DNA of 52,437 bases, from the NCBI GenBank assembly GCA_040004125.1, contig JBDUBL010000005.1, forward strand, positions 1-52,437, written 5' to 3'. The notes below the pieces were generated by a model. That model worked only from the letters and a program-made list of their open reading frames with translations. It searched no databases and was not told where the DNA came from. Numbering within the stretch: the first letter of the stretch is position 1; every line of letters starts with the position of its first letter. Below are positions 7,021-29,266 of this stretch, in pieces. A program made the translations under genes and the position numbers. Source of the DNA: Actinomycetota bacterium. GTDB lineage: Bacteria; Actinomycetota; UBA4738; HRBIN12.

Positions 7021-7791
7021 ATGCGCGTGGGCCTGCCCGAGGACGCCGTCGAGCTCTTCCGCTTCGCCCCCGAGCGGTTCGTCGCCGCGCGCGACGCCCT
7101 CGTGCGACGGCTGCGCGACGAGGGCCGAGATGACGATGCCGCCGCCGTGAAGGCGCTGCGCAAACCGACCGCCGTGGTGTGGGCCCTGAACCAACTCGCC
7201 GTGCGCGACCCCGACGCGCTGGCCACGTTGTTCGAGGCAGGTCGAGATCTCCGGTCCGCGCAACAGACCGCGCTCGCGGGCAAGCCGAGCGGCGCGGAGG
7301 AACTCCGGGCTGCAGCCACGGCTCGTCGCGACGCGGTGGCCCGGTCGCGCAACGCCGCGATCGCGATCCTCGACGAGGCGGGCCACCGCGGCGCGGGACA
7401 GGCAGATGTGCTCACATCGGCTCTGGAAACGGCATCGACCGACATGGCGATCGGAGCGTCGCTCGCGTCGGGAACGCTGGAGAAGGCGCCGGCGGTCGCC
7501 GCGGGCCTCGGCTTCGGGGACATGCCGTCGATCGCCGTGCTTCCCGGGGGCTCGACGGATCCGGTGCCGAGGAGCGCGAGCACACGAACGGGAGTCGCGC
7601 GTCTGCGGAAGGAGCGGGACGCGACGCGGAAGGCCGCCACCGGTCGCCGCGCCACCGCCGACCGATTGGCGCGGCAGGTCGCAGACGCACGCGTCCACCT
7701 GGAGCAACTCGAACGCGACCATGCGGCGGCGGAATCCGAGGCGCTCGCCGCCGAGACGGAGGCCGAGCGCGCCGAGCGCCGTCACACCTGA
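7021..7791 (+). CDS. Hypothetical helical/coiled-coil protein
   Basis: PERFVAARDAL and LRKPTAVVWALNQL resemble a common actinobacterial hypothetical family; directly follows pgl. Confidence 0.7.
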   Translation: MRVGLPEDAVELFRFAPERFVAARDALVRRLRDEGRDDDAAAVKALRKPTAVVWALNQLAVRDPDALATLFEAGRDLRSAQQTALAGKPSGAEELRAAATARRDAVARSRNAAIAILDEAGHRGAGQADVLTSALETASTDMAIGASLASGTLEKAPAVAAGLGFGDMPSIAVLPGGSTDPVPRSASTRTGVARLRKERDATRKAATGRRATADRLARQVADARVHLEQLERDHAAAESEALAAETEAERAERRHT

Positions 7792-8954
7792 TGATGCAGG
7801 GGCTTGGTGAGGCCCTCCAAGACACGCTGCGTGAGCGAGCGATCCTCCCAATCTCCTCGCGTGACGGCATCGCTGCGACCGAGGTCGTCGTCGAAGTGCT
7901 CGTCGAGCGCGGTCACGACCTCGGGATCCAAAACGACGAGATTGATCTCCTCGTCCAGCTCGGTCGACCGCGCATTCACATTGGCCGAGCCCACCATCGC
8001 GAGGATCCCGTCGACCGTCATCACCTTGGCGTGCAACATCGAGGGCTGGAAGTACCAGATGCTGATCCCGTGCTCGAGGAGCTCCGCGAAAGCCGCCTCT
8101 CCCGCGAGCTGCACGAAGCGCTTGTCGGCGTTGGGGCCGGGCAAGAGGATCTCGACCTCGACACCGCGATCTGCCGCCGCGCATAGCCGCTGCGTCATCG
8201 CCGAGTCGGGCACGAAGTAAGCCGTGGCGATCCGAACCCGCTGCTCGGCAAGCTGCAGCAACGCGTTGAAGAGCGTGGAGACGTCGCTCATTCCCGCCTC
8301 CGACGCACCCCGCACGCACTGGATCACCGAGGATCCCGGCTGCTCCTGTATCGGGAAACGGTCCACACGCATGTCGAAGAGGACGTCGTCGGTCTCGGCC
8401 CAGTTGTCGAGGAAGGCGGCGCGCAGTCCGTCGACCGCGGGTCCAACCACCCGGAAGTGCGTGTCGCGCCACTCCGATACGTTGCGCGAGTCGCCCTGCC
8501 ACTCGTCGGCGATGCCCACCCCGCCGGTGAACCCGATCGACTCATCCACGATCATCACCTTGCGGTGCGTACGGTGGTTCATCTTATGCGGCTCGAACTG
8601 CTTCAACGGCCGGAACCACCGCACCTGAACGCCGGCCTCCTGCATCTCATCGACCAGCGGCCGATCGATCGGATGACACCCCCAGCCGTCAAGCAGCGCG
8701 CGCACACGGACACCCGCGCGCGCGCGCTCGGACATCGCCTCGGCGAGCCGCGTGCCGATTTCGCCGCTCCAATACACGAAGGTGAGGAAATCGATCGTGT
8801 GTTGGGCGCCCGCGATGGCCTCCAACATGTCGGGGAAGATCTGGTCGCCGTTGCGAAGGATCGAGACGTGGTTGCCCTCGGTCATGGGCACGCCGATGAT
8901 GCCCTCGAGGGTGCGCCGCACCGTTGCGGTTCGATCGGTGACCGACGCGTTCAT
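7782..8954 (-). CDS. cls: Cardiolipin synthase / phospholipase D family (ClsB-like, no N-terminal TM)
   Basis: Two HKD motifs (HRKVMIVD, HAKVMTVD); ATG 8954 overlaps upstream stop (ATGA). Confidence 0.9.
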   Translation of the reverse strand: MNASVTDRTATVRRTLEGIIGVPMTEGNHVSILRNGDQIFPDMLEAIAGAQHTIDFLTFVYWSGEIGTRLAEAMSERARAGVRVRALLDGWGCHPIDRPLVDEMQEAGVQVRWFRPLKQFEPHKMNHRTHRKVMIVDESIGFTGGVGIADEWQGDSRNVSEWRDTHFRVVGPAVDGLRAAFLDNWAETDDVLFDMRVDRFPIQEQPGSSVIQCVRGASEAGMSDVSTLFNALLQLAEQRVRIATAYFVPDSAMTQRLCAAADRGVEVEILLPGPNADKRFVQLAGEAAFAELLEHGISIWYFQPSMLHAKVMTVDGILAMVGSANVNARSTELDEEINLVVLDPEVVTALDEHFDDDLGRSDAVTRGDWEDRSLTQRVLEGLTKPLHHQV

Positions 8955-9907
8955 CGGGCGCTGAGCGTTGCGGGCTCTCCGGCCCCGTCGCGTGCCTTGC
9001 TCGCGTCCTGCGGCGTGGCCACACCCGCGCGCACCGCCTCGAGCTGGGCGGAAAGCGCCGCGCCGTAGAGGAACGACACCGAAGCCGCGAGCGCCCAGAA
9101 CATCAGCGCGACGATCCCCGCGAGCGGGCCGTAGGTCGCCCCGAACGTCGAGCTCAAACCGAACATCACATCGAGGCCGACCGTGACGAGCAGCAGGAGC
9201 ACGACCGACACGGCCGCCCCGAACGCGAGCCACGACCAGCCGGGCTGGTGACGCTTCGGCGCGTGACGGAACAGCAGGGCCGTGCCCATCCCCAGCAGCA
9301 CCAGCGCTAGGGGCCAGCGCACGATCGACCAGATCGTCGCCACGGTGGGGCTGCCGATAGAGGCGCCGATGTCTCTGCCGAGTGCCAGCGCGACCACCGC
9401 GACCACCAGCACGAGACCCGCGCTAAGGGCGAGCAGGACTGCTCGGACGTACTTATGCATCGTGGGACGATCCTGCTCGACGCCATAGATCCGGTTCAGC
9501 GCGCGTTCGATCTGGCCCATCAAGACGGCCGCCGTAAATGTGGCGCCGATCGTTCCCAGGATCAGCGCAACGGGGTGAGAGGACCCGGCCTGCCGGGCCT
9601 GCCCGGCCGCCTCGGTCAGCACCTGTCCGGTCGGCCCGGGCGCGACGGCGCGCAAGGTGTTCACGATCAGGTCGCGCGCGCCACCGGCACCGAGCACGCT
9701 GGCCAGGCCGACCAGCGCGATGACCCCTTGGACGAAGATCAGGGTGGTCGCATACGCCATCGAGCGCGCGTGGCTGAACCCATCGGCCCATCGCAAGCGG
9801 AGGAACGCGTCGCGCATCAGAGCCCCCCGACCGACGTTGGCCAAGGTCTCCGTCGCGTCGTCGCCGGTGAGGTTCCAGGTCTCCGGGACCTTGTTCGCGG
9901 TGCTCAT
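8951..9907 (-). CDS. YihY/BrkB family membrane protein
   Basis: About 6 TM segments, ALNRIY, TYGPLAGIVALMFW; ATGA coupling. Confidence 0.88.
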   Translation of the reverse strand: MSTANKVPETWNLTGDDATETLANVGRGALMRDAFLRLRWADGFSHARSMAYATTLIFVQGVIALVGLASVLGAGGARDLIVNTLRAVAPGPTGQVLTEAAGQARQAGSSHPVALILGTIGATFTAAVLMGQIERALNRIYGVEQDRPTMHKYVRAVLLALSAGLVLVVAVVALALGRDIGASIGSPTVATIWSIVRWPLALVLLGMGTALLFRHAPKRHQPGWSWLAFGAAVSVVLLLLVTVGLDVMFGLSSTFGATYGPLAGIVALMFWALAASVSFLYGAALSAQLEAVRAGVATPQDASKARDGAGEPATLSAR

Positions 9908-10794
9908 GTCGTCTCCGTTTCCGGCACACAGACGGTGATCGCTTGAGGCTTCACCTTGGTCTTGATGCGCCTGGTCATACCGCGCTCGCTGCCATCGATC
10001 TCATACGGCAGCGGCTCTTTCATGCGGATGTCGAAGGATTTGCCGGTGGCCGCTTGGATGAAGGGCGACTTCGCGGGGTCGCTCACCACCGAACGAGACA
10101 GGGTCCGGAGCCAATCCAGACCCGTCTCGGCGGTGATGACCCCGATGTCGAGGACACCGTCGTCCGGTTGCGCGTCGGGGAAGGCCGAGATGCCTCCGAT
10201 CACGTCTCCCACGTTGCCCACCAGCACACAGCTGGCTCGATCGTCGAACCATCGCTTCCCGTCGACCTCGATGCGCATGCGCACCGGGTCCCGTGAAAGG
10301 TTCTTCGAACCCGAGAAGACGTAGGCGAGTGAGCCGATCCGATCTTTCAACCCGCCGGCCTCAGCGTCGCGGATCATGAAGGCGTCCAGACCTGCCCCGG
10401 ACATCACACCGAAATGCTCGCCGTTGGTCTTGCCAAGATCGATCGTTCGTCGAGCGCCGTGCAACCCGACTCGAACGGCCTCCTCGAGGTCCTTTGGGAT
10501 GCCCATGTTGGTTGCGAAGAGATTGGCCGTACCCGCGGGAAGTATCGCGACCTGCACACCGCTGCCGGCCACGGCGTCCAATGCGCGCTGCACCGATCCG
10601 TCGCCACCCCACACGAAGAGGAGGTCGACCCCTTCGTCCCGCAGCCGGCGTGCCTCCTTGGGGATCTTCTTGGCCTTCATCACCTCGACCCACCTGGGGT
10701 CATCGAATCCATAGCTCGAAAGCGTCTGACGCAGGGCGGGCAGACCGCCATCGAAGGTCTTGGCCGAGTGTGCGAGTACGGCGATCGAGGTCAC
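9904..10794 (-). CDS. Diacylglycerol/lipid kinase family protein (YegS/DgkB-like)
   Basis: GGDGSV, PAGTANLFA, GAGLDA, IDG; GTG 10794 overlaps upstream stop. Confidence 0.9.
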   Translation of the reverse strand: MTSIAVLAHSAKTFDGGLPALRQTLSSYGFDDPRWVEVMKAKKIPKEARRLRDEGVDLLFVWGGDGSVQRALDAVAGSGVQVAILPAGTANLFATNMGIPKDLEEAVRVGLHGARRTIDLGKTNGEHFGVMSGAGLDAFMIRDAEAGGLKDRIGSLAYVFSGSKNLSRDPVRMRIEVDGKRWFDDRASCVLVGNVGDVIGGISAFPDAQPDDGVLDIGVITAETGLDWLRTLSRSVVSDPAKSPFIQAATGKSFDIRMKEPLPYEIDGSERGMTRRIKTKVKPQAITVCVPETETT

Positions 10795-11635: not shown

Positions 11636-11663
11636 GTTTCCCTCTCGGCCCCCTCGGGTAAAC
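11636..11663. promoter_or_regulatory. Overlapping bidirectional SigB/SigF-type promoters
   Basis: + strand GTTT(11636)-N16-GGGTAA; - strand GTTT(11663)-N17-GGGAAA ending 9 nt before ATG 11627. Confidence 0.65.
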
Positions 11664-11689
11664 CCATGGCCTCACATTTCTGATCGGAG

Positions 11690-12616
11690 GTGGCTGTGGT
11701 CGTGTTGGTGGTGGTTGCGGCGGTGTGCCTCATCGCGGGCTCGCTCGCGGCGCTGGCCGTGCGCGCGGCGCCGCGTTCGGACCCCGCGCTGTCAGCGACG
11801 AAAGCGATCGGCGAGGGCCTCGGTCGACGCCGATCGATCCGGGGATTCCTCGACTCGAGGTTCGAGCGGGGCGTCGCGACCGGACTGGCGCTTACCCTCG
11901 GTCTCCTCGCCACGATCGGGGCGGGGATCGTGATCGGCCTCCTGGTCTACATGGTGCGCACCCAGTCGGGGCTGGTCCAAGTCGATCGGGCGGTGGCGAG
12001 CTGGAGCGATCCGCGGATGACGTCGACGTCCATCGCCGCCCTTCGTGTGGTGACGGCGTTCGCCGCGACCCCGACCATCGTCATCCTCGGCGTGCTTGCG
12101 GCGGCGTACTCGCTGTGGCGCTGGCACAGCCGCGCGATCCCGCTGTTCCTCACGATCGTGATCGTGGGCCAGCTCGTGCTCTCGGACCTGATCAAGGGTG
12201 CGGTGCAGCGCGCACGACCCGACCTGCGGCCGTTGGCCGGCTTCTCCGGCCCATCGTTTCCGAGCGGCCATACGACCGCGGCCGCAGCCACGTTCGTTGC
12301 CATCGCCATCGTGCTCGGACGAGATGGGACTCCGAGACGCCGTATGGTGCTGACGGGCGTGGCGGTCGGGCTCGCGGTGGCGGTCGCCTGCTCCCGGGTG
12401 TTCCTCGGCGTGCATTGGGTGTCGGACACGATCGGTGGGCTCGTCTTGGGATGGTCCTGGGTCGCGCTGTGCGCGATCGCGTTCGGTGGACGCGTGATGC
12501 GCTTTGCCGCACCCGCACAGGCCGCAGCAACAACCGCGGCCGAACCGGGTCCGAGGTTTGACGACACGGTCGCCGGGGCAGGGTTGAGTGCACAGCAACG
12601 AGAGGAGATCCCGTGA
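11690..12616 (+). CDS. PAP2 family membrane phosphatase
   Basis: KGAVQRARP, SFPSGH, SRVFLGVHWVSD; exact start uncertain. Confidence 0.88.
   Translation: MAVVVLVVVAAVCLIAGSLAALAVRAAPRSDPALSATKAIGEGLGRRRSIRGFLDSRFERGVATGLALTLGLLATIGAGIVIGLLVYMVRTQSGLVQVDRAVASWSDPRMTSTSIAALRVVTAFAATPTIVILGVLAAAYSLWRWHSRAIPLFLTIVIVGQLVLSDLIKGAVQRARPDLRPLAGFSGPSFPSGHTTAAAATFVAIAIVLGRDGTPRRRMVLTGVAVGLAVAVACSRVFLGVHWVSDTIGGLVLGWSWVALCAIAFGGRVMRFAAPAQAAATTAAEPGPRFDDTVAGAGLSAQQREEIP
12556..12581 (+). promoter_or_regulatory. Possible SigB/SigF-type promoter inside the PAP2 3' end
   Basis: GTTT-N16-GGGCAG upstream of the zinc-finger ORF. Confidence 0.35.
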
Positions 12617-12756
12617 CCGAGCGAACAGAGCAGCGCGGCGACGGCGAAGTCGGCACCTGCCACATCTGTGGCGTGACGTTCCCCACCCAGCAACAGCTTG
12701 TCGCCCATCTGATGGATGACCATGACGGGGAGATCCTGCCTGTCGACGAGCACTGA
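12613..12756 (+). CDS. 47-aa C2H2 zinc-finger microprotein
   Basis: Manual translation MTERTEQRGDGEVGTCHICGVTFPTQQQLVAHLMDDHDGEILPVDEH; RBS AGAGGAG; GTGA overlap with the PAP2 stop. Confidence 0.8.
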   Translation: MTERTEQRGDGEVGTCHICGVTFPTQQQLVAHLMDDHDGEILPVDEH

Positions 12757-12771
12757 CCCGAAAGGAAACGG

Positions 12772-13224
12772 ATGGACGCATTGCAGCTGCTCACCAAGGA
12801 TCACGATCACGTCAAGACGATGCTCGCGGAACTCGAGGACACCACGGAGCGGGCCATCAAGACCCGCGAGCAGGTCTTCACGAAGCTTCGAAGCGATCTC
12901 GAGATACACGAGACGATCGAGGAAGAGATCTTCTACCCGGCCCTCAAGGACCACCCCAAGACGCGCGATATCGCGCTGGAGGGTTACGAGGAGCATCACG
13001 TCGTCGACACCGTGATGGGCGAGATGTTCGAGCTCGAGGTCAGCGACGAGACCTGGACCGCCAAGTTCACCGTCATGAAGGAGAACCTCGAGCACCACAT
13101 CGAGGAGGAAGAGGACACGATGTTCGCCCAGGCTCGCCAGGTGTTCGAGCAGGAGGAACTCGACGCCCTCGGTGCCGCCATGGCCGAACGCAAGGAAGCG
13201 CTCATGGCGGCGTCGAACACGTAG
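12772..13224 (+). CDS. Hemerythrin/HHE cation-binding protein
   Basis: DHDHV, HETIEEEIFYP, EEHH, HHIEEEE; RBS AAAGGA. Confidence 0.92.
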   Translation: MDALQLLTKDHDHVKTMLAELEDTTERAIKTREQVFTKLRSDLEIHETIEEEIFYPALKDHPKTRDIALEGYEEHHVVDTVMGEMFELEVSDETWTAKFTVMKENLEHHIEEEEDTMFAQARQVFEQEELDALGAAMAERKEALMAASNT

Positions 13225-13282
13225 CCGACGCCGTCGCTTCGCCCCGCGGAATCGCGGAGGCTCCTCTGAGGCGGGACCGCCG

Positions 13283-13741
13283 ATGGGAACGATCAATCAA
13301 GACGCGAACACACCGGGCCGGCCCCGTCGTTTCGTGGGCCCGGCCGCCGGTGAAGCAGGCTTGGCGCGGTCGGTGCCGGCGGATCAGGACGAGATCAGGC
13401 CGCTCCGCGCCGAGATCGGCGAGTGGCTCGAGGGGATCGGCGCCGACGACGCAGCGAGGGACGGGGTCGTGTTGTGCGTTTGGGAGGCGCTCACGAACGC
13501 CGTCGAGCACGGCTCGCTCGCGGGGGACAAGGTCGATCTCAGCCTCACGGCGAGTCGCGACGGCTCCCTGGTTGCCGAGGTCGGTGACCAGGGGCGACTA
13601 CTCGAGCGCAAACCCGAGCCCCATCGCGGTCACGGTATGGTGCTGATGCGATCGCTGATGAACGACGTGGAGCTTGGGAACGACGACCTCGGCACGACCG
13701 TGCACATGCGCATGCTGCCCAAGACGACCGACGTCGCGTAA
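13283..13741 (+). CDS. Anti-sigma-factor-like ATP-binding protein (HATPase_c_2)
   Basis: EALTNAVEHG N-box, DQG, GHGMVLMRSLM, GTTVHM; start uncertain. Confidence 0.8.
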   Translation: MGTINQDANTPGRPRRFVGPAAGEAGLARSVPADQDEIRPLRAEIGEWLEGIGADDAARDGVVLCVWEALTNAVEHGSLAGDKVDLSLTASRDGSLVAEVGDQGRLLERKPEPHRGHGMVLMRSLMNDVELGNDDLGTTVHMRMLPKTTDVA

Positions 13742-13756
13742 GGACCGAACGCCCCC

Positions 13757-14599
13757 TCAGATCGGACTGCGAAAAGTGTCGCAGGCGGACGGATCCGCGG
13801 TGCGATAGCCGGTCAGGAACCACTGCTGTCGCTGCTCCGAGGACCCGTGGGTCCATGTTTCCGGGTTGACCTGGCCCTGATACTCCTGCTGGAGGCGATC
13901 GTCGCCCACGGCGGCGGCGGCGCTCAGCGCGTCGGCCACATCGCTTTCCGTGATGGCGGTCACGAACCCCGTCGCGACGGCGTTGGCCGCCCAGACGCCG
14001 GCGTAGCAATCCGCCTGAAGCTCGAGGCGAACGGAATCGCTCTGTGGCCCCTCACTGCTGCCCTGAACCCGATCAAGGGTGTTCATCAAGTCCTGTATGT
14101 GGTGCCCGTACTCATGGGCAAGGACGTAGGCCTGGGCAAGCGGCCCACCCTGCGCACCGTACTTCTGGGTGAGCTCCTGGAAGAACCCCAGGTCGAGGTA
14201 CACGTGCGCGTCGGCCGGGCAGTAGAACGGTCCCACCTGGGTGGTCGCGGGGCCGCACGCGCTCGAGGTGCGATCCGTAAACAACACCGTCTGTGCGCGT
14301 TGGTACCCACCGACCTGACCGCCCCAATATTCCTGGATGCTGTTGACGTACGCGACGACTCGGCAGTCCTCGCTCTGTCGCGTGTCCGCACCCGTCTGGC
14401 ATCCAGCGAGATCACCGCCCGGCGTCTGATCGCCGGGCTGACCTGCCGATCCTCCCGACCCCCCTTGGGTCAACAAGAGGATCACGGTGATGATCAAGCC
14501 GAGCACGCCACCGCCAACGGCGACGGGCGCGCCGGACGACATGCCGCGGCGATCCGAGATCTGAGACGGGTCGAGTCGGGCCCGCTTCCTGATGCGCAT
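13757..14599 (-). CDS. Neutral zinc metallopeptidase (YpfJ-like)
   Basis: GPFYCPAD, HEYGHH, ELQADCYAG, THGSSEQR; N-terminal TM. Confidence 0.92.
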   Translation of the reverse strand: MRIRKRARLDPSQISDRRGMSSGAPVAVGGGVLGLIITVILLLTQGGSGGSAGQPGDQTPGGDLAGCQTGADTRQSEDCRVVAYVNSIQEYWGGQVGGYQRAQTVLFTDRTSSACGPATTQVGPFYCPADAHVYLDLGFFQELTQKYGAQGGPLAQAYVLAHEYGHHIQDLMNTLDRVQGSSEGPQSDSVRLELQADCYAGVWAANAVATGFVTAITESDVADALSAAAAVGDDRLQQEYQGQVNPETWTHGSSEQRQQWFLTGYRTADPSACDTFRSPI

Positions 14600-14608
14600 C
14601 CCCCTGCC

Positions 14609-14633
14609 ATACCCCTTGTGCCCCCGAGGAAAC
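14609..14633 (-). promoter_or_regulatory. SigB/SigF-type promoter, likely leaderless
   Basis: GTTT-N15-GGGTAT ending 9 nt before ATG 14599. Confidence 0.7.
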
Positions 14634-14648
14634 CGCGTCGCGACCAAG

Positions 14649-14674
14649 GTTTGCCGCCCCTCCCAGAGGGGAAC
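14649..14674 (+). promoter_or_regulatory. SigB/SigF-type promoter
   Basis: GTTT-N16-GGGAAC, back-to-back with the previous promoter. Confidence 0.65.
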
Positions 14675-22322: not shown

Positions 22323-22343
22323 GGTGAGCTCGAACACTCACCC
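22322..22343 (+). terminator. Hairpin after the phosphatase gene
   Basis: GGGTGAG-N8-CTCACCC followed by CTTACTT. Confidence 0.4.
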
Positions 22344-22369
22344 CTTACTTACCGTCGAAGGGACCGTCG

Positions 22370-22684
22370 ATGGCGTTCCAAATCGCCGCAGGGCAGGATC
22401 CTCGAACCTTCCGGCTCGAAGGGGAACTCGACGTGGCCGAAACGCAGGCGTTCCTCGATGCAGTGCAGGATGTGGCCGGTGACGGAGATGTTGTGCTCGA
22501 TCTGGAGGCGCTTGCCTTCATCGACAGCAGCGGCGTGCGCTCCCTGCTGGTCCTCGCCGACCGTTTGCACGATGGCGACACTCTGATCCTGCGGAACGCC
22601 CGTCCGGCGGTCCGGCGGGTCTTCGATCTCGTTGCGCTCGAAGCCACGCGGCCCTCGATCCGGGTTGAGGCCGCAGCGAGCTGA
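22370..22684 (+). CDS. STAS-domain anti-sigma factor antagonist (RsbV-like)
   Basis: GELD, LDLEALAFIDSSG with the phosphorylatable Ser. Confidence 0.9.
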   Translation: MAFQIAAGQDPRTFRLEGELDVAETQAFLDAVQDVAGDGDVVLDLEALAFIDSSGVRSLLVLADRLHDGDTLILRNARPAVRRVFDLVALEATRPSIRVEAAAS

Positions 22685-22699
22685 CGAGCGCCTCGTCTG

Positions 22700-23035
22700 C
22701 TACTCGAAGGGTCCGTAGTAGGACGCGATGTCGTTGCGGTACGACGTCTCTTGGTAGAGCGACGCGTCGAACTCCGGCGAGCCCTTGATCCGATCCTTCG
22801 GCAAGGCTATCCACAGCTCTCGTTTCTCCAAGTCGACGCCGCTGATCGCACCTGCCGGGATCATGACCTTCTTACCGAAGATCCACGGTCCGGTGTCGAC
22901 CACGATATAGGCCGCCCCGACATCGTAGGTCGCTTCGTCGATCGTACCGATGTCGCCGTCAGTGGCGTGTACAGCGAAGCCGTCGAGGTCGGTCGTGTCG
23001 CCCAACCCGGTTCGATACGTCCAGACGTCCGTCAT
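22700..23035 (-). CDS. PRC-barrel domain protein
   Basis: VHATDGDIGTID, YIVVDTGPWIFGKKVMIPAG, IKGSPEFD; RBS GGGAGGAG. Confidence 0.9.
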   Translation of the reverse strand: MTDVWTYRTGLGDTTDLDGFAVHATDGDIGTIDEATYDVGAAYIVVDTGPWIFGKKVMIPAGAISGVDLEKRELWIALPKDRIKGSPEFDASLYQETSYRNDIASYYGPFE

Positions 23036-23086
23036 GAACGATCTCCTCCCTTCTCTGCCCCTGTCGGGGCCTCTAACCCATCGTCC

Positions 23087-23112
23087 GTTCCCCGATGACT
23101 CGTACGGGAAAC
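23087..23112 (-). promoter_or_regulatory. SigB/SigF-type promoter
   Basis: GTTT-N16-GGGAAC upstream of the PRC-barrel gene. Confidence 0.65.
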
Positions 23113-23122
23113 CGGGCCCCGG

Positions 23123-23401
23123 TCATTCGACGTCGAGCCGGATCGGCGTTCGTGGCTCCCAGTCGCGCATCGCCTCGGCGAGCTTGACGATCAGCGCGAC
23201 GCCGCCGAGGAGCTCCGCCACCCGAAGGATCGGATGACGGCGCAGCACGGGGATACGCATCACGAGTGGAAAGCCGATCACCAGCCCGGCGGCGGTGACT
23301 CGACGAACGGTTCGACCGGTGTCCGAAGCTAGGAACCGCTTGATCTCCTCGGCTCTGATCGCGATCCGGCTGGGTTGTGTGGTCCTTGGTGTCGTTCGCA
23401 T
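23123..23401 (-). CDS. Small hypothetical membrane-associated protein
   Basis: 92-aa ORF filling the gap, two hydrophobic stretches, promoter match 9 nt upstream. Confidence 0.65.
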   Translation of the reverse strand: MRTTPRTTQPSRIAIRAEEIKRFLASDTGRTVRRVTAAGLVIGFPLVMRIPVLRRHPILRVAELLGGVALIVKLAEAMRDWEPRTPIRLDVE

Positions 23402-23410
23402 CGACCCTCT

Positions 23411-23436
23411 ATACCCACGAATCTCCCCCGCTGAAC
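23411..23436 (-). promoter_or_regulatory. SigB/SigF-type promoter, likely leaderless
   Basis: GTTC-N16-GGGTAT ending 9 nt before ATG 23401. Confidence 0.62.
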
Positions 23437-23442
23437 GCCGTT

Positions 23443-23468
23443 GTTTTGTTCACAGGGAGCGCGGGTAG
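23443..23468 (+). promoter_or_regulatory. SigB/SigF-type promoter, likely leaderless
   Basis: GTTT-N16-GGGTAG ending 9 nt before ATG 23478. Confidence 0.7.
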
Positions 23469-23477
23469 AGCGCCAGG

Positions 23478-23924
23478 ATGATGACACAGGTGCGAGACGT
23501 GATGGCGAAGGAACCGAAGACTGCGGGTCCCGACATGGACGCGACGAACGCGGCCGGCTTGATGGCGTCCTACGATATCGGCGTCGTTCCGATCGTCGAG
23601 GAGGATGGGTCGCTCCTGGGGCTGGTCACGGACCGTGACCTGGTACTTCGGGTGCTCGCGGATCGGCGCGACCCGACGTCGGTCCCCCTGGGCGAGATCG
23701 CCACGCGGAAGTCCCTCTTCACGATCTCGCCCGATGCCACCGTTGCGGAAGCGCAGAAGATGATGGCGTCGAATCGTGTGAAACGCCTGATCGTGACCGA
23801 CGACGACGTGTTCGTCAGCGTCGTCTCCCTCGGAGACATCGCGCAATCAGGCGAGTCGATGCAAGAGGTTGGCGAAACCGTGCGAGAGATCACGGAATCA
23901 CCTGCCACAACGGAGGGCCCGTGA
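23478..23924 (+). CDS. CBS domain pair protein
   Basis: VRDVM, GLVTDRDL, VKRL, VSLGDIA. Confidence 0.92.
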   Translation: MMTQVRDVMAKEPKTAGPDMDATNAAGLMASYDIGVVPIVEEDGSLLGLVTDRDLVLRVLADRRDPTSVPLGEIATRKSLFTISPDATVAEAQKMMASNRVKRLIVTDDDVFVSVVSLGDIAQSGESMQEVGETVREITESPATTEGP

Positions 23925-24124
23925 CCCCATATCTCCTGCACTGCCTCGCTTGCGACGATATTCAGAACGTTCGGAGGACACGGACGTTCTGCTCATGTGG
24001 GCGATCGTCAGCCCGCTCGCTAGCCGGCGCGCTCATCCTGGTGGGTCCCGGCAAGGTCGTCGACGCGAGCCTGGAGGAAGTCGACGTTCAGGTTATCCGA
24101 CCGTCCGTGGCAGCCGCCACGTGA
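23921..24124 (+). CDS. Small Cys-rich protein (CxxC...CxC)
   Basis: LLHCLACDD...FCSCGRS; GTGA overlap with the CBS stop. Confidence 0.6.
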   Translation: MTPYLLHCLACDDIQNVRRTRTFCSCGRSSARSLAGALILVGPGKVVDASLEEVDVQVIRPSVAAAT

Positions 24125-24143
24125 CACTCACGAAAGGAACACC

Positions 24144-24317
24144 ATGGAAATCATCGCAGCAGCGCACGGTGCCACTGCAACCATCCTGTGGATCATCGCC
24201 GCGGTCCTGGTGATCGCCGGAATCATCACCATCATCCGTGGTGGCGTGCTCTTCGGGATCGTCTTGATCGTTGTCGGTCTGCTGGTCGGGCCCGGAGGGG
24301 TCAGTATCTTCAGCTAG
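24144..24317 (+). CDS. GPGG-motif small membrane protein (57 aa)
   Basis: Manual translation MEIIAAAHGATATILWIIAAVLVIAGIITIIRGGVLFGIVLIVVGLLVGPGGVSIFS; RBS AAAGGA; absent from the ORF track. Confidence 0.85.
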   Translation: MEIIAAAHGATATILWIIAAVLVIAGIITIIRGGVLFGIVLIVVGLLVGPGGVSIFS

Positions 24318-24326
24318 AGGTAGCGC

Positions 24327-24734
24327 TCACACTATCGGCACGGGTTGCGGCAGGGGTTGCGGTGGCGCAGGCTCCGGTTGGGGCACGGGCTGGGGTTGAG
24401 GCGGCGCGGGGGGAGCGGGCGACGGCTCCGGCTGTCGTCCCGAATCGATCCCTGCCTGCCGCGCGGCGAGGAGGGATCGGATCAGGGTCCGCTCCTCCCG
24501 CTCGGAGAGGATGTGCGGCCCGTCAAGCTCTTGCGGTCGCCTGCCGAGCGCGATCTTCGGGCGCGGTTGCGTATGTGCCCAGCAATTTTCGGCCGGGTTG
24601 TAGAACGACAGCACGGTCGGGCAGCCCTCGAACTGACAGACACGGCCCGTTGCGAACCGCGTGACCCGGGCTCGGCCGCGGGGCTCGCTGGCGTGCACCG
24701 AGCCGTTCGGCCCCAAGATACCCACTGCATCCAT
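24327..24734 (-). CDS. Hypothetical protein with Cx4C-x12-Cx2H motif and Pro/Gln tail
   Basis: RBS GAGGAGGAG before ATG 24734; GRVCQFEGCPTVLSFYNPAENCWAH. Confidence 0.75.
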   Translation of the reverse strand: MDAVGILGPNGSVHASEPRGRARVTRFATGRVCQFEGCPTVLSFYNPAENCWAHTQPRPKIALGRRPQELDGPHILSEREERTLIRSLLAARQAGIDSGRQPEPSPAPPAPPQPQPVPQPEPAPPQPLPQPVPIV

Positions 24735-24785
24735 CGCACACTCCTCCTCACGGCCACCCGCACCTCGGGCGCCGATGGTCGGAGG

Positions 24786-24811
24786 GTTCCCGCCGCCTAG
24801 GGATCCCAAAC
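24786..24811 (-). promoter_or_regulatory. SigB/SigF-type promoter
   Basis: GTTT-N16-GGGAAC upstream of the 24734 gene. Confidence 0.65.
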
Positions 24812-24813
24812 GA

Positions 24814-24838
24814 GTTTCTGCGAGACCGCCATGGGTAC
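24814..24838 (+). promoter_or_regulatory. SigB/SigF-type promoter facing antisense into the regulator genes
   Basis: GTTT-N15-GGGTAC ending 9 nt before ATG 24848; no credible sense gene downstream. Confidence 0.5.
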
Positions 24839-24886
24839 GACATGCCCATGCGAAGAGGGAACGAGCGTAGATCGCCGGAGCCGACG

Positions 24887-25246
24887 TCAGTCAAGAACGG
24901 CGGGGGCAAGCTCGACGCGTCCGCCGGGCTCGACCGAGACGGTCGCGATCCCCGACAGGAGCGCACGTCTATCGATGTCGCCGTTCGGGACGCTGTGGAA
25001 GGGTCCGACGCCGTTTGCGCGCAGGGTCCACCGTCCCCCCTCGGCGGACAGCGTGAGTTGCAGCGTTGGCTCGTGCGTCTCGAACGCGTTGGCGAGCAGC
25101 TCCGTGGCTGCCAGGCACAGGGTCTCGATGTCCTCGTTCGACAGGCCGAGGGCAGGGCCGCTCGTTCGGACGAACGCGCGGACCGTGATCGCGAGAGCGG
25201 GATCGGTCGGCACGCGCAATTCGAAGGTCGTAGATCCCTCGCTCAT
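24887..25246 (-). CDS. Degenerate anti-sigma-factor-like protein
   Basis: LAATELLANAF N-box but no DxG box; ATGA coupling to the STAS gene. Confidence 0.72.
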   Translation of the reverse strand: MSEGSTTFELRVPTDPALAITVRAFVRTSGPALGLSNEDIETLCLAATELLANAFETHEPTLQLTLSAEGGRWTLRANGVGPFHSVPNGDIDRRALLSGIATVSVEPGGRVELAPAVLD

Positions 25247-25566
25247 GCAAGATCCTCCCGCCGGCTGAGTGGCGAGACGATCTGGTCCAACCCTGTGAGG
25301 GTCAGCAGCCTGGTGAGCGAGCCCTCGGACTCGGCGATCACGGCGAACTCCCCGCCACGTTCGCGGACGTGTTTGAGGGCGCCTACGACGGCGCCAAGGC
25401 CACTCGAATCGATGAATGTCACGTCGGTCAGATCCAGGGCGATCTTGTCGCCGGCCACCTCGTGGACGACGGTCCGAAGCGACGGGCTCGTATACAGATC
25501 CAGGTCGCCGCTCACCGCGACGACCTGCCAATCTCGATAGGTCGTGGTATCGATGCCGAGTTCCAC
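25243..25566 (-). CDS. STAS-domain anti-sigma factor antagonist (RsbV-like)
   Basis: VSGDLDLYTSPSLR, LDLTDVTFIDSSGLG; GGAGG before GTG 25566. Confidence 0.93.
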   Translation of the reverse strand: MELGIDTTTYRDWQVVAVSGDLDLYTSPSLRTVVHEVAGDKIALDLTDVTFIDSSGLGAVVGALKHVRERGGEFAVIAESEGSLTRLLTLTGLDQIVSPLSRREDLA

Positions 25567-25647
25567 ACGAACCTCCTGCCTGGTCCAGATGCACGCCGGA
25601 TGTGACCGCAGCGTTCCCCGCGAGCGCATTTACTATACGCAGACCAT

Positions 25648-26037
25648 ATGATCTCTTCGATCGAACCGATCGTCGTGACCGGGCCCGCGAAGGCTGAGAC
25701 GGTCGCCTTGCTGCGGACGATCGCGGCCAGCGTCGCGGCGCGCCGAGACATGGATGTCGTGGCGATCGAGGAGTTCCGTATCGCGGTCGACGAGGCCGCC
25801 ACGCTCCTGTTGCTCGGCGGTCACGCATCCCGCCTCGAGATGTCGATCCTGCCCACCAACGAGGCGGGCGTCGAGGTTCGCGTGCGTACGGACCTCGATG
25901 GTTCCGCGTTCCACATCGACCGCGCCACGTCGTGGCCGTGGCGGGTGATCCGGCAGCTCACGCGTGGCGCCGAGCTGACGGTCGACGACGGGGGAGCGCA
26001 GGTCGCGTTTCTCGTCGGCGAGGGACCGGAGGCATGA
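25648..26037 (+). CDS. Anti-sigma factor (RsbW/UsfX-like, degenerate kinase motifs)
   Basis: LLRTIAASVA...IEEFRIAVDEA; ATGA coupling to the sigma factor. Confidence 0.75.
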   Translation: MISSIEPIVVTGPAKAETVALLRTIAASVAARRDMDVVAIEEFRIAVDEAATLLLLGGHASRLEMSILPTNEAGVEVRVRTDLDGSAFHIDRATSWPWRVIRQLTRGAELTVDDGGAQVAFLVGEGPEA

Positions 26038-26774
26038 GCCAGGACCATCCCGGCCGCGACGCCGAGGATCCGGTGGTCGCGGATCTCTTCGCGCGCATGC
26101 CGGACCGAGCCGCCCGCGACGAGCTCGCGCGGAGGTACTTGCCATTGGCCGAACATCTGGCTCGGCGCTTCGGAGGCCGAGGGCAGCAGCACGATGACCT
26201 CGTTCAGGTCGCGAGCCTGGGACTGGTCAACGCGATCGACCGGTTCGATCCGAGCCGCGAGGTTCGGTTCACGACCTTTGCCACCGCAACCATCGTCGGT
26301 GAGCTGAAGCGCTACTTCCGCGACCGCGGGTGGGGCGTGCGCGTGCCTCGCAGCGTGCAGGAGGCGACGATGCAGGTGAACCGTGTTATGGGTTCGCTGT
26401 GGCAGGAGCTCGGCCGAGCCCCAACGGTCGCCGACATCGTGGCCCGAACCGACCTGACCGAGGAATCGGTCCTCGAGGCGCTCGAGGCCTCACGCGCCTA
26501 CACGAGCGCGTCGCTGGACGAGCCAGTGGGTGAAGCCGGCACGGTCGCCGGCGACCTGATCGGTGGGCATGACGAACGTTTCGACGTCTCCGAAGAATGG
26601 CTCGCCATGGCCCCGAAACTGCGGACGCTCTCTGAGCGGGAGCGCCGGATCCTGTACCTGCGGTTCTTCCAAGATATGACCCAAACGGAGATCGCGGAGG
26701 AGATCGGCATCTCGCAGATGCACGTCTCGCGGCTGTTGACACAGAGCCTGGAGCGCCTGCGCGACCCGGCGTAG
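26034..26774 (+). CDS. sigF: SigB/SigF/SigG-family RNA polymerase sigma factor
   Basis: DDLVQVASLGLVNAIDRFDP, TIVGELKRYFRDRGWGVRVPR, TQTEIAEEIGISQMHVSRLL; sigF versus sigB naming is arbitrary. Confidence 0.95.
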   Translation: MSQDHPGRDAEDPVVADLFARMPDRAARDELARRYLPLAEHLARRFGGRGQQHDDLVQVASLGLVNAIDRFDPSREVRFTTFATATIVGELKRYFRDRGWGVRVPRSVQEATMQVNRVMGSLWQELGRAPTVADIVARTDLTEESVLEALEASRAYTSASLDEPVGEAGTVAGDLIGGHDERFDVSEEWLAMAPKLRTLSERERRILYLRFFQDMTQTEIAEEIGISQMHVSRLLTQSLERLRDPA

Positions 26775-26778
26775 CCTT

Positions 26779-26804
26779 GTTTGCGCCTCCGACGGGTCGG
26801 GTAT
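26779..26804 (+). promoter_or_regulatory. SigB/SigF-type promoter
   Basis: GTTT-N16-GGGTAT, 12 nt before ATG 26817. Confidence 0.72.
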
Positions 26805-26816
26805 TGGAGCGCGGGA

Positions 26817-27062
26817 ATGAGCGATCAGCAAGAGCTTCGGTGCCCCATCTGCCTCGTTGGCGTGGTGGCCGACATCGCATTCGACCGTGACCCGTCCCGT
26901 CCCCAGGCGGTACCCCAGCAAACGCCCGAGACGACCGAACTCACGACCTATTCGTGCGGACATCAGGTGCCGGGGCGTTCCCTGGCAAGCGCCGACGCCG
27001 AGGCGCTCGATGTCGAACGGCGACAGTCGCAAGACACCGTGGCACCGCCACCGGGCGCATGA
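26817..27062 (+). CDS. Small putative zinc-ribbon protein (CxxC...CGH)
   Basis: LRCPICLVG...YSCGH; ATGA coupling to the CDGSH gene. Confidence 0.7.
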   Translation: MSDQQELRCPICLVGVVADIAFDRDPSRPQAVPQQTPETTELTTYSCGHQVPGRSLASADAEALDVERRQSQDTVAPPPGA

Positions 27063-27268
27063 GCGAGCGACGGGCTCCCAAGATCGAGGCGTACACGAAC
27101 GGGCCATTCCTCGTGCGTGGGCCGATCGAGATCGTGGGAGAAGACGGCACGGCTCTTCAGACGCACCGGGGAACGGTCGCGCTGTGCCGCTGCGGACATT
27201 CCGCGATCCGCCCCCTCTGCGACGGCTCGCACGCCTCCGCCCACGCCCGGCGCTCCGCAACCCGCTAG
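27059..27268 (+). CDS. CDGSH iron-sulfur domain protein
   Basis: NGPFLVRG, ALCRCGHSAIRPLCDGSH. Confidence 0.92.
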   Translation: MSERRAPKIEAYTNGPFLVRGPIEIVGEDGTALQTHRGTVALCRCGHSAIRPLCDGSHASAHARRSATR

Positions 27269-28347
27269 CTCGACTGGCGGGTTCCCCCCGGCTCAATCAT
27301 GCTCGATCTCCCGGCGTTCCAAGCGTCCAGGATCCAACGACCCGCCCGATCTTCAAGCGCGAGCAGCGCCTCGGCGCCGAAGCGCACATCCCGATCCAGC
27401 GCGGGCTCGTCCTGCACCAACCTCCCGGCCACGTCCCGGGCCGCCAGCGCCGCGTGCGCCGCGTCGGCTTCGACATGCTCGTCGAAATAGGCGGTCGCAT
27501 CGGGTGTCGCCCCGAGGCGGCGAAGCCCGTCGCCGTAGCGCCGGTTCGGCACGCAAGAGGTCATCTCGAACGCGGCCAAATGCCCCATCGCAGCGCCACG
27601 GAGGCGCCGATGCAGTCCAAAAAGAGACATCAGGTTGACCGTCGCCAGCGTCGTGCCGGGCAGGCGGTCCACGTAGGCGCCGGGCGTCGCATCGAGACCC
27701 ATCGCGCGCAGCGATGCCACGAACAAGGAGGCGTGGACCCAGGCGGGGTCGCCGCCCCCGTACTCATCCGACTGGATCTCGACCAGCGCAGCCTTCGATG
27801 GTCCCCGAAGGCGGGGGATCACCCAGGTGTGCGGGTCCGCTTCTTTCAGGTTGTACGCGGAGCGATGCATCAGGAACTCCTCGGCCTGCGGACGCGTGGC
27901 GTCGCTCTCTAGGAAGGCTGCCAACGGCGCGCCACCCGGTCGGTTCGCGATCGTTCCCAGCGACCGCTCGATCCCGGCCTGCCGCAGGTCCGTCACCGGA
28001 ACCACCCGTCGAAGACCCAACTCGAACGCCTCTTCTAAGACCGCGCGGAACGCGAGTAGAGAGGGCTCCCATTCCCAGCGCTCGTCGACGCCGTGCACGC
28101 CCGTGTAGTGCAGCTCGTAGCACGCGTACAAGGCGAGATGCAGATCGTCGTCGCCAACCGAAACCTCCGGCGGAAGTGCTCGCGCCTGCGCCCGCGCGTG
28201 CGCGAGCTGGCCGGGCGAGACGAACGGCGTGCCGGTACGCGTCCAGGCGGCGACCAGTTCCGCGCTCAGCGGGCCACGGGGCGTCGGCATCGGCATCTTC
28301 TCGATCGAGGCGCGCATCTCGGGCTCTGCGGATCGCATGGTGAACAT
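27265..28347 (-). CDS. Iron-containing redox enzyme (heme-oxygenase-like fold)
   Basis: LYACYELHY, EADPH, DEYGGG...H, FEMTS, YFDEHVEADAAH; GGGTAT 10 nt upstream. Confidence 0.88.
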   Translation of the reverse strand: MFTMRSAEPEMRASIEKMPMPTPRGPLSAELVAAWTRTGTPFVSPGQLAHARAQARALPPEVSVGDDDLHLALYACYELHYTGVHGVDERWEWEPSLLAFRAVLEEAFELGLRRVVPVTDLRQAGIERSLGTIANRPGGAPLAAFLESDATRPQAEEFLMHRSAYNLKEADPHTWVIPRLRGPSKAALVEIQSDEYGGGDPAWVHASLFVASLRAMGLDATPGAYVDRLPGTTLATVNLMSLFGLHRRLRGAAMGHLAAFEMTSCVPNRRYGDGLRRLGATPDATAYFDEHVEADAAHAALAARDVAGRLVQDEPALDRDVRFGAEALLALEDRAGRWILDAWNAGRSSMIEPGGTRQSS

Positions 28348-28391
28348 AGGAGGCCGTATACCCGTGACGGTCCCCTCCTACGCGTGGCAGC

Positions 28392-28417
28392 GTTTGCTCG
28401 CGATTGCGCCGGGGTAC
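28392..28417 (+). promoter_or_regulatory. SigB/SigF-type promoter
   Basis: GTTT-N16-GGGTAC about 150 nt upstream of ATG 28566. Confidence 0.65.
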
Positions 28418-28565
28418 GGGCTCGGCCGAGGAGGATGCGAGCTCGCGGCCGACGACGATCCGGGGGGAGGGTCATCGGCCGCGGCTCCCCCTCCGGTCGA
28501 AAGGATTGAGCCGGCCACCGGTTGGGAAAGGATCCATCGTCGAAGACGGAACGGAAGGAGACACC

Positions 28566-28739
28566 ATGTGCATGTCATGCGGATGCGGAGAGCCGAACGA
28601 GCAGCATGGCAGCAGCGACCACATCACGCTCGAGCAGATGGAGCGCGCCGCGAAGGCCGCCGATATCGACGTTGAGACGGCTGCCGACAACATCCACGCT
28701 CTGGCGAAGCAACTGCGCGACGCCCGCTCCTCGGGCTGA
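28566..28739 (+). CDS. Small Cys/His metal-binding protein (MCMSCGC...)
   Basis: RBS AAGGAG; MCMSCGCGEPNEQHGSSDHIT, 57 aa. Confidence 0.8.
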   Translation: MCMSCGCGEPNEQHGSSDHITLEQMERAAKAADIDVETAADNIHALAKQLRDARSSG

Positions 28740-28800: not shown

Positions 28801-28875
28801 ATGGGCATCATCGTGACGATCGTCGTCGTGGCTGTGGCCATCGCCTTAGCGCTCTGGCTGCTGAACCGGGCATAG
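28801..28875 (+). CDS. 24-aa single-TM peptide
   Basis: RBS AAGGAGGGA; MGIIVTIVVVAVAIALALWLLNRA; followed by a terminator-like hairpin. Confidence 0.65.
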   Translation: MGIIVTIVVVAVAIALALWLLNRA

Positions 28876-28890
28876 ATAGCACGACTCGAG

Positions 28891-28926
28891 AACCCCCATC
28901 GGTCGATCTGCCCGAGTGGGGGTTTT
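28891..28926 (+). terminator. Probable intrinsic terminator
   Basis: AACCCCCA...TGGGGGTT arms with inner TCGG/CCGA and a T tract. Confidence 0.6.
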
Positions 28927-28996
28927 CGCTGCACGGCTTCGGCTAGCGGCCCAACGGCCTCCCGAGGCATACTCATCCGATCCGAGGGAGGTCACG

Positions 28997-29266
28997 ATGG
29001 GATGTCTGCTGATCCTGCTTACGGGGCTCGCGCCTCGTTTCGCCGCCGTCTTGTACTGGATCGTTCGGCCTGGGCGATGGGATGTCGCCTTCAACGGCTC
29101 GTGGCTGTGGCCGCTGCTCGGCGTGATCTTCCTGCCGATCACGACCATCGTTTGGGTGCTGGTCGCAACCGGAGGCGTGGCCTCCTTCGACTTCCTATGG
29201 CTCGGGATCGCGGTGTTCCTCGACATCGGCTCAACCGCGCGGTCGGCGGCGAAACGCAACGCCTGA
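28997..29266 (+). CDS. Small membrane protein
   Basis: RBS GGGAGG; MGCLL...PR, WPLLGVIFLPITT; about 3 TM. Confidence 0.78.
   Translation: MGCLLILLTGLAPRFAAVLYWIVRPGRWDVAFNGSWLWPLLGVIFLPITTIVWVLVATGGVASFDFLWLGIAVFLDIGSTARSAAKRNA

Follow-up and report, generated by a model that had tools for sequence, protein, structure and literature searches.

The 52,437-nucleotide (nt) contig JBDUBL010000005.1 (assembly GCA_040004125.1), which was analysed as a whole and is called the window below, belongs to an uncultured Acidimicrobiia-like soil actinobacterium. Between positions 7782 and 29266, this contig very probably contains a conserved neighbourhood composed of a group-3 SigB/SigF-type sigma factor, its partner switch, 11–13 promoters of its own and five leaderless genes or operons. 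The region offers a sigma-B/SigF regulon that is readable directly from the DNA of an uncultured soil lineage, including its promoters, likely start points and transcription units.

The assembly comprises 108 contigs with a total length of 2.14 Mb and is ∼80% complete. The G+C content of the window is ∼68%, the nearest named records are metagenome-assembled genomes of uncultured Actinomycetes and Acidimicrobiia, and a listing of sequencing runs places the stretch in the DNA of seven soil metagenomes. Genes were called using a self-trained codon model and start codons were then curated by hand from the sequence, which is a caveat on all intergenic figures given here. Protein families were assigned by Pfam and NCBIfam profile searches of the window proteins. 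Promoter sites were identified exhaustively on both strands with the regular expression GTT[TC]-N15-17-GGG[TA]A (strict form, GTTT-N15-17-GGGWA), and d denotes the number of nt between the −10 hexamer and the start codon. The tallies made over related genomes (sigma presence, searches of 61 genomes and site density) include the unpublished genomes G018, G023, G052, and G062, and no sequence-level claim depends on these four.

Promoter sites in the sigma neighbourhood

In total, 15 matches were found in the window, of which 13 lie within 11636–28417 and the remaining two (2744 on the plus strand and 39974 on the minus strand) are antisense and within coding sequences. The −10 hexamers of all 13 clustered sites are intergenic in a region (7782–29266) whose intergenic share is 7.3% on the curated gene map, and 12 of the sites point at a gene or a conserved start codon. 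Ten of them form five divergent pairs, namely three back-to-back pairs (14633/14649, 23436/23443, and 24811/24814) and two fully overlapping mirror-image pairs (11636/11663 and 23087/23112). The entire genome contains 101 matches, a rate that predicts 0.79 sites for the 16.8 kb in which 13 were found (Poisson P = 3.6e-12), and the 12 GTTT-type matches in the window compare with a mean of 0.32 over 100 dinucleotide shuffles, none of which reached 12. The original prediction of about a dozen GTT(T/C)-N15-17-GGG(T/A)A sites in the gaps between 11.6 and 28.4 kb was thus borne out, and the motif is not equally frequent at random or in coding DNA. It also equals the published sigma-B/SigF consensus, as predicted. 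Boxes, spacing, strand and excess over chance all support the assignment of these sites as candidate SigB/SigF-type promoters.

The same gene order was found in three relatives (G031–G033) with ∼74% DNA identity, through the region and past its ends. At almost all orthologous sites, these relatives retain both boxes (GTTT and GGGWA), the start codon and the spacing between box and start codon, whereas the 16-nt spacers and the 9-nt stretches themselves diverge; the synteny proposed as a check was therefore found. Three further genomes (G036, G039, and G051) are identical to G031, G032, and G033, respectively, over the aligned region, hence only four distinct sequences are available including that of the window. 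In the sigma neighbourhoods of ten relatives, including members of other families of the order, 86 sites were found, and their density near the sigma gene is 0.23–0.69 per kb in nine of the ten (0.03 in G011), compared with 0.047 per kb genome-wide here. The word island applies to the region only insofar as its genes are clustered. The G+C content of 2-kb windows wholly inside it (0.645–0.705) equals the range of the flanks, and no mobility genes were found among the Pfam matches of the window proteins. The region is a conserved chromosomal neighbourhood and was not horizontally acquired.

The island had also been described as self-contained, which holds only in part. Of 20 strict GTTT-type matches in the genome, 11 are in the cluster, and the other nine equal the count obtained with a reversed-pattern control (9). 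However, contig C9 carries a second partner-switch cluster (positions 1700–9300) that encodes a STAS protein, an RsbW-like protein, an 862-amino-acid (aa) PP2C protein, and another HATPase_c_2 protein. Two candidate sites are found there, one inside the end of the STAS gene with the RsbW-like ATG 10 nt downstream of it, and the other 9 nt before the ATG at 8804. The other candidate sites outside the cluster are located on contigs C5 (two sites), C36, C70, and C14; the C70 site is of the GTTT type, and GTTC-type sites with an ATG at 9–13 nt are present on C5, C36, and C14. In the complete genome of the relative G044, sites are scattered along the chromosome.

Start-codon spacing and leaderless transcripts

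In seven of the 13 sites, an ATG begins exactly 9 nt past the hexamer (11627, 14599, and 23401 on the minus strand; 14684, 15069, 23478, and 24848 on the plus strand), for which P = 1.6e-11 at a per-position ATG frequency of 0.0099. Six of these had been quoted in the original prediction and proved exact, the ATG at 14684 being the addition. Among the 86 sites of the ten relatives, 17 have an ATG at d = 9 and another 11 at d = 10 (28 of 86 at 9–10), every other d from 0 to 30 accounts for 0–4 sites, and six have a GTG at d = 9. According to the excerpted text on the Staphylococcus aureus sigma-B open complex (PMC11156646), the consensus is GTTTWW/GGGWAW, in which GGG occupies positions −15 to −13 and the flipped A is at −11. 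If GGGWAN is numbered −15 to −10, the next nine bases are −9 to −1, and therefore the A of the ATG would be +1.

The original prediction regarded this 9-nt spacing as a leaderless rule of the regulon. Its agreement with the published sigma-B numbering and with the general promoters of the genome suggests instead that it is the ordinary leaderless geometry of this organism and is not special to the regulon. Genome-wide, the distance from TANNNT to ATG peaks at 6, 7, and 8 nt (156, 128, and 107 cases, respectively, versus a background of ∼35), with a similar peak for GTG, and when the TA dinucleotides of TANNNT and GGGWAN are aligned, 6–8 nt corresponds to 9–11 nt. Starts of this type (TANNNT followed by ATG or GTG at 6–8 nt) exceed the background by ∼400 among ∼2140 called genes, so roughly a fifth of the genes look leaderless. 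Published data on Mycobacterium smegmatis already show such geometry; there, 24% of the transcripts are leaderless and GGGTA is found at the −10 of 56 hypoxia-induced transcription start sites, according to the part of PMC6448022 consulted. Beside the cluster, TAGGGT (29940–29960) precedes the ATG (29938) of a minus-strand CDGSH/Fer4 gene by 6 nt; it is kept in four genomes and exemplifies the housekeeping-type leaderless geometry.

It is unlikely that the promoters are real and the genes are nevertheless leadered, with transcription starting elsewhere or the true start codons located further downstream. The start points are deduced from DNA, the ATG at 14684 opens only seven codons ahead of a gene with its own Shine-Dalgarno sequence and GTG, and no conserved protein follows 24848, all of which would suit that explanation. 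However, the ATGs at 15069 and 23478 are the first possible starts after an in-frame stop, the Pfam alignments begin at residues 5–6 of the Zn-peptidase and CBS proteins, and the start codon stays at 9–10 nt across 10 genomes. In addition, 9 nt is too short for a Shine-Dalgarno sequence, and the TANNNT-N6-8-ATG peak shows that leaderless starts are common in the genome. From this geometry, we infer that 11627, 14599, 15069, 23401, and 23478 are the starts of leaderless mRNAs with credible genes. The earlier claim that many transcripts are leaderless or nearly so is retained for these five genes or operons, with 26817 being near, but not for 14684 and 24848, which open no conserved protein.

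The sigma factor and its partner switch

The sigma factor (246 aa; 26034–26774, plus strand) contains Pfam sigma-70 regions 2, 3, and 4 and matches TIGR02980, the SigB/SigF/SigG family, with 271.1 bits (cut-off 234.35). The genome contains 18 sigma-70 region-2 matches and seven TIGR02980 matches, and only this protein scores above the family cut-off. Loci on contigs C16, C37, and C12 reach 129–140 bits, and the match on C16 (32% identical) was taken as the housekeeping sigma factor. The closest solved structure is the sigma chain of 8x6g (E 1.9e-49), the S. aureus sigma-B open complex (PMC11156646). When the DNA-contact residues listed in the excerpted text of that report were compared by alignment, nine of ten were identical, namely all four −35 contacts (S235, Q236, M237, and R241) and five of the six −10 contacts (R74, F86, R97, R100, and R110). 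We infer that this sigma factor reads the GTTT-N-GGGWA sites around it.

As predicted originally, profile matches place the sigma and partner-switch genes among the promoter sites within the cluster; two STAS proteins and one SpoIIE/PP2C protein are present. Immediately upstream of the sigma gene, and with a stop codon overlapping its start, lies the gene for a putative RsbW-like anti-sigma factor (129 aa; 25648–26037, plus strand). Its matches are N-terminal only and below the cut-offs (HATPase_c_2, 18.8 bits versus 27.4, E 1.7e-3; RsbW, E 6.7e-5), but its position and overlap with the sigma start fit the role, and this placement is conserved in relatives. On the minus strand, one operon (24887–25566) encodes a STAS anti-sigma antagonist (25243–25566; STAS, E 5e-16; TIGR00377, 77.7 bits, above cut-off) and an RsbW/RsbA-like protein (24887–25246) with a weak HATPase_c_2/RsbA match; both are conserved in G031–G033. 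A 1218-aa fusion protein (18666–22322, plus strand) combines GAF repeats (four GAF-type matches) with SpoIIE/PP2C (E 2e-40) and HATPase_c_2 domains in the Pfam search, and a second STAS protein (22370–22684, plus strand; E 7e-14) is encoded downstream of it. A further RsbW-like gene, identified by profile match, is located at 13283–13741 (plus strand).

The sigma factor, anti-sigma factor, STAS antagonists, and GAF-PP2C-kinase fusion would together constitute a partner-switching system, in which stress, the presumed inducing signal, would cause the antagonists to free the sigma factor. The freed holoenzyme would then transcribe about 12 units from GTTT-N16±1-GGGWAN promoters. These units would supply lipid-remodelling functions (two PAP2 proteins, DAG kinase, PLD-like, and BrkB proteins), hemerythrin, CBS-pair and CDGSH proteins, a haem-oxygenase-like enzyme, a Zn-peptidase, and many small Cys/His or membrane proteins.

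Upstream of the sigma-containing operon, the search revealed no SigF-type promoter. A 35-nt block (25608–25642) upstream of this operon is nearly invariant in the four genomes; it contains TACTAT 10–11 nt before the ATG and reads GTAT-N16-GGGAAC on the minus strand. The block is conserved beyond what a promoter needs and may therefore be a regulator binding site or contain overlapping divergent promoters.

The lack of such a promoter before the sigma gene would be in keeping with real promoters that are read by another sigma factor, for example, one of the full-length factors not of the extracytoplasmic function type on C37 or C12 or one encoded in the missing 20% of the genome. The TIGR02980 matches of 129–140 bits on C16, C37, and C12 also leave room for such a factor, which we nonetheless consider very unlikely. 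Only the sigma factor at 26034 passes the family cut-off, with nine of ten sigma-B DNA contacts, the sites cluster around the sigma gene in relatives of several families, and motif density follows the presence of the sigma orthologue. Among 28 relatives, the median number of GTTT-type sites is 9.4 per Mb in the 20 genomes with an orthologue and 3.7 per Mb in the eight without (Mann–Whitney P = 6e-4). Two near-complete genomes give a cleaner contrast: G044, which has the sigma factor, carries 38 sites (control, 10), and G048, at 98% completeness and lacking a sigma above the cut-off, carries six (control, 1).

It is still less probable, to the point of being remote, that a dimeric transcription factor uses the sites as operators, not promoters, by binding an inverted repeat, GTTTCCC...GGGAAAC. 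Near-perfect inverted repeats do occur at two of the 11 loci (11636–11663 and 23087–23112), the first of which is conserved across the genus. However, the other nine loci are not palindromic and have differing halves (GTTT versus GGGTA), the plus-strand half of the second palindrome is not conserved, the fixed 9–10-nt distance to the start codon fits a promoter, and the motif equals the sigma-B/SigF consensus. An origin of the clustering in chance or in the composition of AT-richer intergenic DNA, which favours GTTT and in whose promoter space even the reversed control is slightly enriched at low thresholds (9/169 versus 3.3 expected), can be dismissed, as 0 of 100 dinucleotide shuffles reach 12 and strand-correct placement, exact spacing, and cross-genome conservation cannot come from composition.

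Several observations weigh against the assignment of these promoters to a regulon of the neighbouring sigma factor. The genome is only about 80% complete, and none of the sequencing runs listed for the stretch is recorded as RNA; it is known from DNA alone. The GTTC form of the motif occurs three times in the window versus 1.21 expected, a count reached by nine of 100 shuffles, so that on its own this form does not differ significantly from chance. Neither the regulator operons nor csbD carries the motif: in a window scan with a position weight matrix (PWM), no match scoring at least 10 was found upstream of the PP2C fusion gene, both regulator operons, a gene for a 182-aa LEA-like protein, or csbD (17869). 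The pocket residue F79, listed for S. aureus sigma-B in the excerpted text of PMC11156646, aligns with Arg in the sigma factor. In the comparison of the 28 relatives, the reversed-pattern control also differs between genomes with and without the orthologue (2.0 versus 0.7 per Mb, P = 0.015), the genomes compared are kin, and several of those without the sigma factor are incomplete assemblies, among them G013, in which 12 sites are nevertheless present at 69% completeness. Because the cluster's own sites served to train the PWM, its scores there are circular. A genome scan with this PWM, proposed as a check for intergenic enrichment, revealed enrichment outside the cluster, but only modestly (at a threshold of 14, 8/58 matches in promoter space versus 1.1 expected; reversed control, 2/33). 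When GGGTAN alone was searched for genome-wide, ATGs at 9 nt (33 cases) rose only slightly above the coding background with its 3-nt period (16–28 cases at most of the nearby offsets in the same phase, and 37 at d = 12), and a rule based on the −10 alone (GGGTAN-N9-ATG) was rejected.

Systems of this type are familiar from mycobacteria, Streptomyces, and Firmicutes, and what is gained is therefore breadth and not principle. One of the closest known counterparts is the SigF regulon of Mycobacterium smegmatis with its partner switch (RsbW and RsfA/B). In this species, according to Table 1 of PMC4694148, SigF has the same consensus (GTTT-N15-17-GGGTA/GGGAA), many sites lie 8–11 nt from annotated starts, and a SigF-dependent run (MSMEG_1766–1804) beside rsbW-sigF includes PLD-family, hemerythrin, RsbW-paralogue, and antagonist genes. 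In contrast, the present organism belongs to another class of Actinomycetota, is uncultured, has a genome of <3 Mb, and is known from sequence alone; the regulon recovered here has few members and is much more tightly concentrated, and the sigma operon lacks a detected SigF-type promoter. Sigma-B of Bacillus subtilis and S. aureus belongs to the same family, TIGR02980, and shares the promoter (GTTTWW-N14-GGGWAW), the RsbV/RsbW/PP2C logic, and nine of ten contacts with the system described here. Sigma-B genes of Firmicutes are leadered with Shine-Dalgarno sequences, and CsbD is a classic sigma-B target; in the window, about half of the units appear leaderless by geometry and csbD has no site. 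Mycobacterial SigF regulators such as Rv1364c combine a sensor, a PP2C domain, and an RsbW-like kinase, with STAS adjoining or fused. The PP2C fusion resembles this layout but has four GAF-type matches rather than PAS, and STAS is encoded by a separate downstream gene. As a compact and conserved system, the region provides a test bed for leaderless expression driven by an alternative sigma factor.

Transcription units and neighbouring elements

The first divergent pair of promoters lies between two PAP2 genes. P1 (11637–11663, minus strand; GTTT-N17-GGGAAA) is followed by an ATG (11627) at 9 nt and by the PAP2-DAGK-BrkB-PLD operon (11627–7782), and its boxes and 9-nt spacing are conserved in G031–G033. 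P2 (11636–11661, plus strand; GTTT-N16-GGGTAA) has a leader of ∼28 nt with GGAGG and a GTG start at 11690. Its operon (11690–13741) encodes PAP2, a 47-aa C2H2-like protein, hemerythrin, and, at its end, the RsbW-like protein of 13283–13741. On either strand, the segment 11636–11663 (GTTTCCC-N13-GGGTAAAC) can be read as a full GTTT...GGGWA promoter, with the two −10 hexamers 19 bp apart and each overlapping the −35 of the other strand. The general pattern GTTTCCC-N12-14-GGGTAAAC was found once each in nine of 61 related genomes (reversed control, one of 61). In eight of the nine, it is located between divergent PAP2 orthologues, down to ∼50% protein identity and with unrelated spacers; five of these eight loci were found via the pattern itself, which makes the box conservation partly circular, and the three syntenic relatives were found independently.

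From its sequence, this 27–29-bp element might work as a genuine two-way sigma-B/F promoter representing an undescribed kind, a proposal that we rate somewhat short of even. One alternative-sigma holoenzyme could bind it either way, giving a leaderless operon on one side and a leadered operon on the other. Occupancy would be mutually exclusive, so the two lipid-phosphatase operons would share one stress signal but compete. Bidirectional promoters with a symmetric −10, as described in the consulted parts of bioRxiv 10.1101/2020.01.31.928960 and PMC12825309, likewise have one short pseudo-symmetric element at which RNA polymerase binds in either orientation to serve divergent genes. In those promoters, the symmetry lies inside the sigma-70 −10 element, whereas 11636–11663 has no shared symmetric −10; here, each −35 (GTTT) complements bases flanking the opposite −10 (GGGWAAAC), which places two full promoters on the same 27–29 bp. 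A search of open-access literature for bidirectional or divergent SigF promoters found nothing relevant, which, given that scope, does not establish that none has been described. If any feature of the region extends what is known of promoter architecture, it would be the mirror-image promoter.

P3 (14609–14633, minus strand) lies 9 nt before the ATG (14599) of a Zn metallopeptidase gene (PF04228; 13757–14599), whose Pfam alignment starts from residue 6. Back to back with it, P4 (14649–14674, plus strand) precedes an ATG (14684) at 9 nt that opens, at the predicted +1, only a 7-codon open reading frame (ORF). The TGA of this ORF overlaps the GTG start (14701/14704; GTGA) of a gene for a 107-aa membrane protein. 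The ATG is kept in four genomes and is in frame with the 107-aa gene in G031 only, via a 1-nt insertion, and the arrangement at 14684–14707 may represent termination–reinitiation coupling on a leaderless transcript. P5 (15034–15059, plus strand) lies 9 nt, exact in four genomes, before the ATG (15069) of a gene for a 508-aa membrane protein and possibly also drives a methyltransferase gene (16689–17774). Neither Pfam nor NCBIfam assigns the 508-aa protein to a family, the Atlas yielded no usable match for it, and the predicted local distance difference test (pLDDT) value of its Atlas model is 0.46.

P6 (23087–23112, minus strand) has a 51-nt leader with a Shine-Dalgarno sequence and an ATG (23035) for a 111-aa PRC-barrel-like protein. 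This minus-strand site is kept in G031 and G032, and its plus-strand mirror (23087–23111) faces no gene and is not conserved in relatives. P7 (23411–23436, minus strand), with a GTTC −35, is located 9 nt before the ATG (23401) for a 92-aa protein without family (23123–23401), and its orthologous sites in G031–G033 have ATG or GTG at 9 nt. P8 (23443–23468, plus strand) precedes the ATG (23478) for a CBS-pair protein at 9 nt, or at 10 nt in relatives, and its unit continues with a 67-aa Zn-ribbon-like ORF (23921–24124) and a GPGG small membrane protein (24144–24317). P9 (24786–24811, minus strand) has a 51-nt leader with a Shine-Dalgarno sequence before the ATG (24734) for a 135-aa Cys-motif, Pro-rich protein (24327–24734).

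P10 (24814–24838, plus strand), with an ATG (24848) at 9 nt, would give a transcript running antisense to the RsbW-like and STAS genes (24887–25566). Four genomes retain both boxes of P10 and the 9-nt distance to the ATG, and the site was not seen in G001, G002, or G011. The plus-strand ORF (24848–25540) was rejected as a gene: it spans 230–266 aa with N-termini and frames that differ among the four genomes, is Arg-rich and shadow-ORF-like, and has no family. The site listed in the original prediction for 24848 is thus real, as is its spacing, but it lies antisense and leads to no conserved ORF. Its output may be a sigma-dependent, translated antisense RNA, and it is a possibility that the same sigma factor drives this transcript over its own antagonist and kinase genes as a feedback loop.

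P11 (26779–26804, plus strand) lies downstream of the sigma gene and 12 nt before the ATG (26817) for an 81-aa Cys protein (26817–27062), which is followed by a 69-aa CDGSH protein (27059–27268). The ATG is at 9–10 nt in relatives, and 26817 is nearly leaderless. P12 (28392–28417, plus strand) has a leader of ∼150 nt and then two small ORFs, namely a 57-aa Cys-rich protein (28566–28739) and a 24-aa membrane peptide (28801–28875). A block of ∼65 nt in this leader (28428–28491) is ∼89% identical in relatives, compared with the region average of ∼74%. An indel in it rules out a conserved peptide, and G031 keeps the block though the downstream Cys-rich ORF is absent there. Two interleaved pairs of complementary 7-nt segments are predicted in the leader (28418–28565; GCGGCCG/CGGCCGC and GGGGGAG/CTCCCCC), which suggests a pseudoknot or switch. 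A search of the whole window against Rfam yielded no family at the gathering score and only chance-level matches at 28340–28560, and no informative covariation was found for the 28428–28491 element in the four sequences obtained from 61 genomes searched.

On the opposite strand, a candidate promoter (28348–28363, minus strand) has a GGGTAT box (28363–28358) 10 nt before the ATG (28347) of a haem-oxygenase-like gene (PF14518). The box (GGGTAT or GGGTAG, 9–10 nt upstream) is conserved, and ∼14 nt further up is a non-canonical conserved GTAGGAG, not GTTT, with which the site scores below 10 in the PWM. This GTAGGAG (28348–28385) may be a variant −35 or an activator site.

The original prediction assigned about ten uncharacterised proteins to a stress response. 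About eight family-less proteins are assignable and are placed in the regulon alongside lipid-remodelling and metal/redox proteins: the 508-, 135-, 107-, 92-, 81-, 67-, and 57-aa proteins and the 24-aa peptide. The inclusion of the CsbD-like protein (17678–17869, minus strand; Pfam) as a regulon member was not upheld, as no SigF-type site is present upstream of csbD in the window; G005 has one site ∼70 nt upstream of its own csbD. Between csbD and the gene for the 182-aa protein, a strong hairpin (17900–17950) persists in G032 and G033 despite changes to its stem bases and precedes a conserved CACGCCAA. No T-run follows, so the hairpin may be a processing or stabilising element and not a terminator.

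Small Cys/His proteins of 47–135 aa are unusually concentrated in the putative regulon (12613–12756, 23921–24124, 24327–24734, 26817–27062, 27059–27268, and 28566–28739). They include C2H2-like, Zn-ribbon-like, CDGSH, and MCMSCGCG types, in addition to hemerythrin and a double-CDGSH protein (29267–29938). In the profile search, the small proteins gave only sub-threshold zinc-finger hints, and their concentration hints at a metal or redox theme.

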